NCBI GenBank assembly: GCA_048938025.1
Contig: JBHLMP010000018.1
Location: 1 to 27,913, forward strand
DNA from: Promethearchaeota archaeon
Lineage (GTDB): Archaea; Asgardarchaeota; Lokiarchaeia; Sigyniarchaeales; SOKP01
Reading direction: 5' to 3'
Length of the DNA: 27,913 nt
The translations under genes and the position numbers were made by a program. The stretch's first letter is position 1. The number at the start of each line of letters is the position of its first letter. The notes beneath the pieces were generated by a model. That model was not told where the DNA came from and made no database searches. It saw only the letters and a program-made list of their open reading frames with translations. Of this stretch, positions 4,221 through 25,213 are shown one piece after another.

Positions 4221-5406
4221 TTATTTTTGTTTTGATAAATATCTAATTTTTACAAGCAAATCTCTTAATTCCATTTTATCATTGTCAGGAGTAAGATATT
4301 TCTTTTTAACTCCCTCAGCAAGGGGTACTTTTTCTATTTTGTTTCGTTGGAGAGAAACCATATAACCAAATTCATTTTTTAAAACTAATTTCATTGCTGC
4401 TAAGCCAAATCGCAATCCAAGAATGCGATCGAAACAATTTGGAGTTCCAGCACGCATTGTATGACCAAGAACTACACTCCTGCATTCAAATTCTACTCCA
4501 TTTTTTTGAAATTCTTCTTTTAAATCATCTCTTAAATGTAATTCATCAACAATTATTTGAGACATACCTAATTTAGTTAATAATGGATTTCCAAATGTAT
4601 CTTTTGGTAATTTATCTATAGTTTCTTTCGAAATCGTTTTAAAATCTCTCTTTAATGATTGGAGATTCGGATATGCTCCTTCTGAAATTGCTATTATATG
4701 ATACTTATATCCCGCATCAGCTCTTTCTTTAAGAATTTCAACGATATCTTTCTCAAAATCAAAGGGAGTTTCTGGGATTAAAATGATATCCGCACCAGCA
4801 GAAATCCCACTATACATTGTAAGAAATCCAGCATCCCTTCCCATTATTTCAACAATAAATACTCTTTGGTGGGAATGTGCTGTAGTAGTCAGATTATCTA
4901 ATGTGTTAGATGCTAATTGTACAGCGCTCCAAAATCCAAATGTATAGTGTGTTCCAGCTAAATCGTTGTCAATCGTTTTTGGAACACCAACTACTTTCGC
5001 ATTAGCAAATTTATACATAGTATAAGCCACCCCAAGAGTATCATCCCCCCCAATAGCAATTAAAGCATCAATGCCAAGCCTTTCAAATTGTAACGCTAAT
5101 TCTTTAGCTTTCTCTTCTTTTGAACTAACATCTTTAAAGGGATTAGTTCTACTTGTATAGAGGATAGTCCCCCCTACAGTGTGTAAATCATCATGTTCTG
5201 CTATTTTAAGAGGGATAGTATCATTTTCCAAAAATCCTTTCCAACCTTTAAGGATTCCAATACATTCAATGCCAAGATCGTACGCTTTAAGCATTATTCC
5301 ATAGATAACTGAATTTAAACCAGGGCAGTATACGACAGTTAAGGAAAATCTTGAACATGACTCCGCCGCCCGTTAAAATTCCTACTTTTTTTATTTGATT
5401 ACCCAT
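4221..5406 (-). CDS. pfp: 6-phosphofructokinase of PfkA family, probably PPi-dependent; two exons, join(5406..5361, 5329..4221), 384 aa after removing a 31-nt insert
   Basis: Exon 1 encodes MGNQIKKVGILTGGG plus one G; exon 2 starts AC and continues CPGLNSVIYGIMLKA. Joining them restores GGGDCPGLN. The body has GGTILYTSR, GGDDT, PKTIDND, MGRDAG and LGHTMRAG. The track ORF starting at 5294 lacks the essential N-terminal motif. Confidence 0.9.
5330..5360 (-). other. Putative bulge-helix-bulge intron in the pfk mRNA (31 nt)
   Basis: Minus-strand insert TCATGTTCAAGATTTTCCTTAACTGTCGTAT splits the GAC codon. Central helix GCGG/UCGU, bulges AG|U and AU|A, inner stem CA-GUU-AAG/CUU-AAC-UG, outer stem GGGC/GCCC. 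Confidence 0.8.
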
Positions 5407-5460
5407 TTCATTTCACACATTTTAAAAAAAATGATGATAATTTTATATTTTATATTCTAA

Positions 5461-6021
5461 TTATATTTTCTCAATTTTCTTATAAGAATAATTTGATCTG
5501 TTTTTTGGAATTATATAACTTCCTCCTAAAGTATCAGTTATTATTAACGTGAATTTAAATTTGCCATCCATAGTTTTTTTTAAATTCACTAAAAGTTCGT
5601 CTATTTCGCTTTTCTCGGGATCATTTTTATCAAGATTATTTCTGTAAATTGAAACAGCATTTTCAAATCTATATAATATACCTTCTACATTTGTATAATA
5701 GAAATCAGCTCTTGGACCAGGTTCTACGACTAAATCCAATTCTGGAATCTCTAACTTTCCTGCTGGTGAGCGATAGATTTTAGATTTGAGATCTTCTTCA
5801 TTTGTGATTTTTAAAGTCATTATTCCTGGTTCCATATTAGTAGTTAAAGGAATTATATCATTTTTATGAAAATTACAAGTATTACATTCAAATTTTAATA
5901 TAAGCATTTTGTCTCCATCTGGAAGATTATAAATATTCTTAACAATTTCGATAATTCCCTGTTGACATGAAGGACATTTGAAAGAATAGATAATATTATT
6001 ATTTTCTTTCTCATCAGACAT
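5461..6021 (-). CDS. ZPR1-type zinc finger protein
   Basis: CPSC...CNTCNF zinc finger, LEIPEL...VEPGP, TNVEGIL, FTLIITDTLGGSYI. Confidence 0.9.
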   Translation of the reverse strand: MSDEKENNNIIYSFKCPSCQQGIIEIVKNIYNLPDGDKMLILKFECNTCNFHKNDIIPLTTNMEPGIMTLKITNEEDLKSKIYRSPAGKLEIPELDLVVEPGPRADFYYTNVEGILYRFENAVSIYRNNLDKNDPEKSEIDELLVNLKKTMDGKFKFTLIITDTLGGSYIIPKNRSNYSYKKIEKI

Positions 6022-22881: not shown

Positions 22882-22892
22882 TATATTTTAAG

Positions 22893-22996
22893 CGCTCAGG
22901 GTGGGATTTGAACCCACGAATCCATACGGACACCGGTTTAGCAGACCGGCGCTGTTGGCACAATTATATTGTTCTACCAGGCTAAGCGACCTGAGC
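22893..22996 (-). tRNA. tRNA-Ser(GCT) with a 20-nt D-arm intron (22954..22973, about position 22/23)
   Basis: GCTCAGG/CCTGAGC acceptor, CCGGT CT-GCT-AA ACCGG, long variable arm, G discriminator. BHB with UGGU/GCCA helix and bulges AG|A, AC|A. Confidence 0.92.
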
Positions 22997-25111: not shown

Positions 25112-25213
25112 GCAGATGTAGCCTAGCTGGTAAGACGCCGGCCTTGAGTTTTTCTTACAAGCAAGATAGCCGGTGCGCGTAAGCGCTCGGGGGTTCGAGT
25201 CCCTCCATCTGCG
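25112..25213 (+). tRNA. tRNA-Ser(TGA) with a 19-nt intron at 37/38 (25149..25167)
   Basis: GCAGATG/CATCTGC acceptor, CCGGC/GCCGG anticodon stem, CT-TGA-G|intron|A, long variable arm. BHB with CUUG/CAAG helix and bulges AG|U, AU|A. Confidence 0.92.

Follow-up and report, generated by a model that had tools for sequence, protein, structure and literature searches.

Phosphofructokinase gene of a Promethearchaeota archaeon interrupted by a 31-nt insert, very probably a bulge-helix-bulge intron of its pre-mRNA

How can the only phosphofructokinase gene of an archaeon have its reading frame broken 46 nucleotides (nt) past the start codon? The question is raised by pfk on the minus strand of the stretch of DNA analysed here (the window), which is the first 27,913 nt of the 58,056-nt contig C7 of a Promethearchaeota metagenome-assembled genome (MAG). 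This source genome, G000, comprises 3.52 Mb in 88 contigs at 29.3% GC, and is 96.7% complete with 5.1% contamination; below, C is a contig label, L a numbered locus, g a numbered genus, and G023 a congener. Judged from comparative sequence data, the 31 nt at 5360..5330 very probably constitute a bulge-helix-bulge (BHB) intron in the pfk pre-mRNA, which would be spliced by the endonuclease EndA and the ligase RtcB. From the letters of the window alone (the sequence-only reading), it had been proposed that the pfk mRNA of a probable Asgard archaeon contains a BHB intron. The proposal is supported by conservation of the insert, purifying selection, constraint found in carriers only and the presence of EndA and RtcB, and the host assignment by near-identical pfk genes in Promethearchaeota MAGs.

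The gene is divided as follows.

5361..5406, minus strand: pfk exon 1, with ATG at 5406, 15 codons (MGNQIKKVGILTGGG) and the first base, G, of an Asp codon
5360..5330, minus strand: 31-nt insert, the proposed BHB intron, recovered motif-free in a two-genome comparison
4221..5329, minus strand: pfk exon 2, with AC of the Asp codon, 368 codons and the stop at 4221-4223

In the minus-strand sequence, exon 1 ends at 5361 with ...GGCGGCGGAG and exon 2 opens with ACTGCCCTGG at 5329. The junction is in phase 1 with 17 open codons upstream, and the insert splits the GGG/DCPG loop, exon 2 resuming with AC TGC CCT GGT. Unspliced, the locus holds a 39-aa open reading frame (ORF; 5287..5406, minus strand) and a 357-aa ORF (4221..5294, minus strand); because the insert begins so soon after the start codon, ribosomes on unspliced mRNA would yield the 39-aa peptide. 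Deletion of the 31 nt in silico gives a 384-aa phosphofructokinase (PFK) containing ...GILTGGGDCPGLN... (GGGDCPGLN). The minus strand as given in the sequence-only reading, including the insert, matches exactly; its 384-aa enzyme with GGG-D-CPGLN was reproduced, and its stop after 39 aa agrees with the ORF list.

The product of exon 2 is a PFK (Pfam PF00365, 1.4e-77, profile positions 25-276 of 277). With the NCBIfam PFK models the match begins at model position 11-12, and because these matches begin late, the absent N-terminal motif is the portion encoded upstream of the insert; the full PFK domain, including the N-terminal GGDxPG loop, is regained solely upon removal of the 31 nt. With regard to the cofactor (ATP or PPi), for the truncated exon 2 piece NF002872 is the best match above its own cut-off and TIGR02483 lies under its own cut-off. 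A profile search of G000 gave one PFK-family match only, that is, pfk is a single-copy gene. No direct repeat was noticed at the borders of the insert in a by-eye reading of the minus strand, in agreement with the earlier remark that there is no target-site duplication.

The sequence around the insert can be drawn as a BHB with an outer helix (h), a central helix (H) and an inner helix (h').

5367..5371, minus strand: 5' strand of outer helix h, in exon 1 (columns 5-9 of alignment A1)
5363..5366, minus strand: 5' strand GCGG of central helix H, in exon 1
5360..5362, minus strand: 5' bulge AG/U, proposed cut between 5361 and 5360
5336..5359, minus strand: inner intron stem-loop h', with 8 pairs, two single-base bulges and a 6-nt loop
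5332..5335, minus strand: 3' strand UCGU of central helix H, in the intron
5329..5331, minus strand: 3' bulge AU/A, proposed cut between 5330 and 5329
5323..5328, minus strand: 3' strand of outer helix h, in exon 2 (C, bulged U, GCCC)

The motif has the hBHBh' topology in a slightly relaxed form, both flanking helices being imperfect: H consists of two G-C and two G-U pairs, and h of five exon-exon pairs and one bulged U. A BHB scanner run at the junction scored H 4/4, h 5 and h' 2. The borders set by alignment to intron-less orthologues coincide with both predicted bulge cuts, and they cannot be slid without altering the product; the helices and bulges drawn by hand in the sequence-only reading are as described. 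In the portion of Yokobori (2009; PMC2738675) available to us, EndA substrates, including cbf5 pre-mRNAs, are cut between the second and third residue of the bulge. Across 17 distinct insert sequences, 97.6% of the cells of the named structure are paired (h 98.8%, H 98.5%, h' 96.3%), compared with 30-55% when the partners are slid. A self-splicing group I or group II intron or another known RNA family was rejected, as Rfam gave zero matches up to E = 1 in 5150-5550 and the insert is merely 31 nt long.

Maturation of the transcript would start with pairing of GCGG in exon 1 with UCGU in the 3' part of the intron to form the 4-bp helix, flanked by the two 3-nt bulges, with the exon-exon helix outside and the intron hairpin inside. 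A two-subunit EndA would then cut each bulge between its second and third residue. RtcB, an enzyme that ligates 2',3'-cyclic phosphate to 5'-OH ends, would join the exons and thereby regenerate the split Asp codon G/AC and the GGGDCPG nucleotide-binding loop, and the intron would probably be released as a 31-nt circle. Cleavage, ligation, the acting enzymes and the fate of the intron are inferred from the known pathway (general knowledge, and PMC2738675 as far as available). Nothing in these data favors the regulatory switch that the sequence-only reading had considered possible.

The enzymes that this pathway would need are encoded in G000. Two EndA paralogues of about 200 aa each are present, EndA alpha on C66 and EndA beta on C33; against fused EndA models, one aligns to the catalytic C-terminal half and its partner to the N-terminal half, which fits an (alpha-beta)2 enzyme. 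RtcB is encoded on C68. In the available part of PMC5829648, Asgard EndA is described as an (alpha-beta)2 enzyme with an L1 loop, which is tied to a broad substrate range.

Among 21 readable same-genus pfk loci, five carry the insert (L001, L003, L004, L013 and L020) and 16 lack it, so that it occurs at the same site in 4 of the 20 loci other than the window's own; one further locus was masked (L007 + L032, G006:C1 ~1698400), where about 100 N replace the N-terminal region of pfk, and stands outside the scoring. When 154 genomes of the order were searched by pattern, genera g1, g21 and g22 gave matches that were exact or had one mismatch, and all 17 distinct sequences from these three genera are 31 nt long. 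The sequence-only reading had pointed to DNA data as the place to confirm the insert, and contigs of other DNA runs do carry it: record 7 of X1 and records 15 and 16 of X2 span it with at least 35 letters on either side, and record 22 of X3 covers it entirely with 2 letters different. Intron-less relatives in the same DNA runs are exactly 31 nt net shorter.

After removal of the insert, the frame is intact with a conserved C-terminus in all 15 full-length carriers, and exon 1 is in register (a 16th carrier locus runs off its contig and was left out of this set). Over the 105 carrier pairs, mean dN/dS is 0.059 (range 0.030-0.090) and synonymous differences, pS, average 0.69 per site. Mean identity is 0.80 for the intron and 0.44 for four-fold third positions, with the intron ahead in 105/105 pairs. 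The intact frames, the low dN/dS and the conservation of the insert together imply that the PFK protein is needed and that the insert itself is under selection. A quick PFK gene tree, in which 17 of 48 inner branches are open, places the carriers scattered inside one clade of 40 rows (support 95), with no carrier among 8 rows from other families; the carrier labels cluster no better than shuffles, and the tree yields no order of gain and loss.

Half of a BHB is exon, and the exon bases that would pair were compared at synonymous positions in 19 carrier and 38 non-carrier loci, a set that includes a few duplicates and in which the loci are phylogenetically related.

Thr12 third base: G in 18/19 carriers; G in 2/38 non-carriers
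Gly13 third base: C or U in 19/19 carriers; C or T in 16/38 non-carriers
Gly14 third base: C in 19/19 carriers; C in 5/38 non-carriers
Gly15 third base (bulge A): A in 19/19 carriers; A in 22/38 non-carriers
Asp16 third base: C in 19/19 carriers; C in 5/38 non-carriers
Cys17 third base: C or U in 19/19 carriers; C in 7 and T in 31 of 38 non-carriers

In the 38 intron-less loci the same sites track the A/T bias of the genome. Fixation of the pairing synonymous sites in carriers only is what is expected of a BHB and not of a neutral insertion, and lends the fold strong, if indirect, support.

In other species pfk harbors a second insert, located at IGG/DDT and containing in-frame stops. Its sites and further loci are as follows.

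L004:2308-2366, L020:2308-2366 and L022:2308-2366, minus strand: second pfk insert
L017:1736-1794, L039:1736-1794 and L048:1736-1794, plus strand: second pfk insert
L145, L146, L147 and L149: further loci with the second pfk insert

All 10 distinct sequences are 30 nt long. Here h is UAUCG/CGAUA, the hairpin has up to 10 bp, H comprises a constant G:A mismatch and three pairs, and the bulges are AG/U and AG/A (or AC/A, AA/A). Of the cells in this structure 90% are paired, versus 33-44% with slid partners, and one pair switches from A-U to G-C in 3 sequences. Both inserts occur together in seven distinct genes; the window's own pfk has no insert at IGG/DDT.

The pfk intron is probably one of a larger set of inserts. 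The congener G023, a single 2.27-Mb contig with an intron-less pfk, was aligned with G000 over 2,152 orthologous regions without the use of any motif; 465 distinct gaps, 10-200 nt long and flanked by conserved sequence, emerged and were scored per strand as (gap, strand) units. The pfk insert was among those recovered, and the BHB geometry was found at the following frequencies.

Strict core (H 4/4, h' at least 2) at the aligned border: 8/87 coding-breaking units; 12/843 other units
Borders movable up to 5 nt: 13/87 coding-breaking units; 15/843 other units

At least 5 of the 15 other units that pass the relaxed border test lie in tRNA genes, as judged from their flanks, and apart from coding-breaking inserts and tRNA genes few inserts show the geometry at the aligned border. 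The tRNA inserts in this comparison (18-33 nt) share the geometry, and their presence differs between close species. After one duplicate, two tRNA genes and one A/U-only case had been dropped, the candidates in protein genes were as follows.

G000 C39:14888-14916, plus strand: aIF2-gamma insert, 29 nt, at GHVDHG/KTTL; passes the strict test only
G000 C12:22112-22140, minus strand: Ras-family GTPase insert, 29 nt
G000 C9:20651-20681, minus strand: JAB/MPN protein insert, 31 nt, at HSHPGF/K
G000 C14:21820-21859, minus strand: DnaG-like Toprim protein insert, 40 nt
G000 C4:12494-12522, plus strand: Fer4 protein insert, 29 nt; h' 0, relaxed
G000 C48:85758-85782, minus strand: thioredoxin insert, 25 nt
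G023 C1:292004-292034 (L167:12004-12034), minus strand: purA insert, 31 nt, at WG/DEGKGK; context GGAG^AC
G023 C1:1382056-1382085 (L222:2056-2085), plus strand: aEF-2 insert, 30 nt with stops, at SD/DEEQERGITI
G023 C1:1097293-1097324, plus strand: insert in an unknown zinc-ribbon protein, uncertain
G000 C48:22741-22769, minus strand: insert in a SepSecS-family gene after 14 codons, uncertain; H 4/4, h' 1, h 3

The other differences considered were rejected as introns of protein genes: G023 163613-163660 and 1658550-1658610 reflect tandem duplication where genes end; G000 C55:27000-27092, C7:40970-41052 and C51:1926-1958 are intergenic or gene-end differences; the flanks of G023 879175-879207 and 888441-888470 point to tRNA genes; and the helix at G023 2246895-2246913 is A/U only.

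The exon pieces of the insert-bearing genes match the expected Pfam families, those of aEF-2 at positions 2-35 and 49-187 of one profile. The purA and aEF-2 inserts of G023 are absent from G000, and six G000 inserts outside pfk are absent from G023. With one eIF2_C match in G000 and one EFG_IV match in G023, the interrupted genes include essential single-copy ones. For aIF2-gamma, 27 of 134 other genomes of the family, from several genera, gave a continuous match across the insert, and many others matched as two abutting pieces, that is, the insert is absent. Separately, the frame upstream of the aIF2-gamma P-loop is open for 117 codons and contains HHH_5 (6e-12; L268:1039-1389, plus strand, equivalent to G000:C39:14538-14888); two explanations fit, namely that aIF2-gamma is extended at its N-terminus or that an upstream gene shares the frame by chance.

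It takes no sliding to place the borders of the pfk, purA, Ras-like GTPase and aEF-2 inserts after the second of the three bulge residues. The exon context GGAG^AC at a Gly-Asp codon pair is common to the purA intron and the two pfk introns. A new intron copy may be retained only if the exon at its site allows helix H to be rebuilt, and survival at such sites alone would explain the shared context. Because the comparison detects solely inserts that differ between G000 and G023 within well-conserved flanks, part at least of the seeming preference for conserved loops stems from the method itself. A broader reading, entertained here tentatively and at a little under even odds, is that one Promethearchaeota family harbors a population of 25-40-nt BHB introns in protein genes, removed by EndA and RtcB, several of them in nucleotide-binding loops (pfk twice, aIF2-gamma, aEF-2, purA and the Ras-like GTPase), repeatedly gained and lost, and surviving only at sites where the motif can be rebuilt. 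The guess in the sequence-only reading that similar introns lie elsewhere in the genome is supported by these further BHB-type inserts in other genes.

Several observations weigh against splicing of the pfk insert as a BHB. No listed sequencing run that carries the pfk locus is RNA, and neither the spliced junction nor a circular intron was seen. The helices are imperfect: H contains two G-U pairs, a U bulges out of h, and h' has a single-base bulge at two places. The minimum free energy (MFE) fold of the single sequence pairs the exons otherwise, without the 5' bulge, and its stability is ordinary (z -1.49; 19/200 shuffles fold equally well). RNAalifold retains the outer helix, 3/4 H pairs and the hairpin, and shuts the 5' bulge through A14-U39 and G15-C38 pairs. 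Covariation is weak: one of 17 pairs, in h', is changed on both sides, from G-C to A-U, and column shuffles are not exceeded; covariation cannot decide here because the 17 sequences are too alike (91% column identity). Of the ortholog alignment to which the sequence-only reading looked, the presence of the insert is confirmed and the compensatory pairs are scarce. The Fisher values for the exon sites (about 7e-11) ignore relatedness and are hence overstated. Finally, a structure-only scan for BHB geometry joining two open frames (intron 12-120 nt, about the first 50 contigs, six slid-partner controls) gave no excess over the controls at any stringency, for example 340 matches versus 369-390 in controls with sides of at least 50 codons, H 4/4, h at least 4 and h' at least 3. 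The genome scan for BHBs at frameshifts suggested earlier thus returned counts equal to the controls; because it has no power at 29% GC, it says nothing either way on other introns. The two-bulge form accordingly derives from its coincidence with the protein borders, from the exon constraint and from analogy, and not from energy.

These structural points lend themselves to a different reading, in which the insert is removed from the RNA by a different nuclease and ligase, or with the RNAalifold alternative fold as the substrate. In its favor, neither the RNAalifold nor the MFE fold has the two-bulge form, and several of the inserts are relaxed, such as the Fer4 insert with h' 0 and the second pfk insert with its constant G:A mismatch in H. 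Against these stand the unslid borders in pfk, purA, the Ras-like GTPase and aEF-2, which follow the EndA rule (PMC2738675, as far as available), the tRNA introns from the same comparison, which share the geometry, and the lack of any Rfam match. Removal by other means is thus unlikely, and splicing by EndA and RtcB is preferred.

Alternatively, the ribosome itself could handle the insert, by translational bypassing of the T4 gene 60 type or by programmed frameshifting. The insert is short, has a hairpin, follows a GGA codon and is without a stop in frame 0. However, the Asp codon is split G/AC, so only removal of exactly 31 nt gives GGGD, and a reading of the sequence finds no GGN landing codon before the 3' border; matching take-off and landing codons, as in bypassing, are absent. 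Simple read-through would lengthen the nucleotide-binding loop by about 10 residues at the cost of the Asp. In-frame stops occur in the second pfk insert and the aEF-2 insert, and the exon bases that are fixed in carriers belong to the BHB helices. Handling by the ribosome is therefore very improbable.

The third reading is that the 31-nt insertion inactivated pfk, or that translation begins at Met 5294 and gives a protein devoid of the GGDxPG loop. Such a pseudogene or shortened gene would suit the unspliced frame, which ends after 39 aa, and the 357-aa ORF that starts downstream, as well as the non-ATG triplets (ATA or ATT) at the start position in 4 carrier species. Decay among orthologues, which the sequence-only reading had named as contrary evidence, was found in none of the 15 full-length carriers from three genera; the rest of the gene, stated there to be intact, is so in 15/15 frames, with dN/dS of 0.03-0.09 despite near-saturated synonymous sites. 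Conservation of the insert above the synonymous level in every pair, exon sites fixed in carriers only and the sole pfk copy in the genome also contradict decay, and this reading is extremely improbable. An assembly or binning artefact, for which the 88 contigs and 5.1% contamination of the MAG might speak, is hardly credible, as the insert recurs in assemblies made independently for many species, and other runs yield contigs that carry it.

The start position of pfk lies behind a GGTGAT Shine-Dalgarno-like motif, and the four carrier species with ATA or ATT for ATG are those of L020, L145, L147 and L151; in L149 the triplet is TTG. These may be near-cognate starts, or the true start may be elsewhere. 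Directly upstream of pfk, at 5461-6021 on the minus strand of the window, lies a gene for a 186-aa ZPR1-type zinc-finger/jelly-roll protein (PF22794, 3.7e-18). The window also contains two tRNA loci.

22892-22994, minus strand: apparent tRNA-Ser(GCU) with a long variable arm, by reading; missed by ARAGORN and by the Rfam gathering score
22953-22972, minus strand: 20-nt insert in the D-loop region of this tRNA candidate; the congener has no insert
25112-25213, plus strand: 102-nt Rfam tRNA match (44.3 bits), missed by plain ARAGORN; with the intron option, tRNA-Ser with a 19-nt intron

An ARAGORN intron search of G000 called 32 tRNAs, 18 of them with introns, many implausible, and was not used.

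The closest known system is the cbf5 pre-mRNA intron of Crenarchaeota, reportedly described by Watanabe in 2002 and Yoshinari in 2006. According to the portion of Yokobori (2009; PMC2738675) available, archaeal pre-mRNA splicing was confirmed only for cbf5, though introns were predicted in other genes, and a 2025 paper, also available in part, still cites just three cbf5 papers for it. The cbf5 intron resembles the present one in its BHB-like motif built half from exon, the same cut rule, a hetero-oligomeric EndA of broad specificity, a patchy occurrence among related species and a misreading by gene callers as a frameshift (PMC2738675, same portion). It differs in that here the gene is pfk, the host a member of Promethearchaeota and splicing proposed from comparison, in that some species have two introns in one gene, and in that these genomes carry BHB-type inserts in further genes, aIF2-gamma and aEF-2 among them. 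An orthologue of the cbf5 intron was rejected, because the host gene encodes PFK and not Cbf5 or another pseudouridine synthase; by analogy, the pfk case appears to share the cbf5 mechanism and not the cbf5 intron itself.

Non-canonical BHB introns are very frequent in tRNA genes of some Asgard archaea (PMC11291895; bioRxiv 10.64898/2026.10.13.758758; both available in part). They are alike in motif, size range, enzymes and variable presence between close species, whereas the host here is an mRNA with no tRNA body to aid recognition, and removal must be base-exact for the frame and compete with translation. The searched passages of these two papers mention no introns in protein genes. The literature searched, which covered few subscription journals and no supplements, that of the 2026 Asgard tRNA-intron preprint included, gave no report of BHB introns in protein-coding genes of Asgard archaea.

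Two further systems offer partial parallels. In HAC1/XBP1 splicing of eukaryotic mRNA, a regulated stress switch, Ire1 cuts at two stem-loops and Trl1 or RtcB ligates. The likeness lies in a short mRNA intron that is independent of the spliceosome, removed by an endonuclease and a tRNA ligase with a shift of the reading frame; the difference lies in Ire1 acting on two stem-loops there and EndA proposed to act on a BHB here. Bypassing in T4 gene 60 likewise yields one protein from a coding sequence with a short non-coding gap; it takes place on the ribosome and needs matching take-off and landing codons, whereas in pfk the codon is split and a landing codon is lacking.

A gene of central carbon metabolism and single-copy translation factors, aIF2-gamma in G000 and aEF-2 in the congener, are interrupted in this Asgard lineage. 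If the inserts are spliced, gene callers would systematically truncate or split such genes and thereby distort metabolic reconstructions, and EndA and RtcB would have a role in mRNA in the archaeal relatives of eukaryotes, which would bear on the origin of XBP1/HAC1-type splicing and of the activities that the eukaryotic tRNA splicing endonuclease has on mRNA. The patchy occurrence among close species would then provide a natural system for studying the gain and loss of introns in protein genes. Should the tentative reading of an intron population in this family be true, the closest prokaryotic relatives of eukaryotes would be the first prokaryotes known to need mRNA splicing routinely for core metabolism and translation, and would provide an archaeal precedent for mRNA splicing of the RtcB type.

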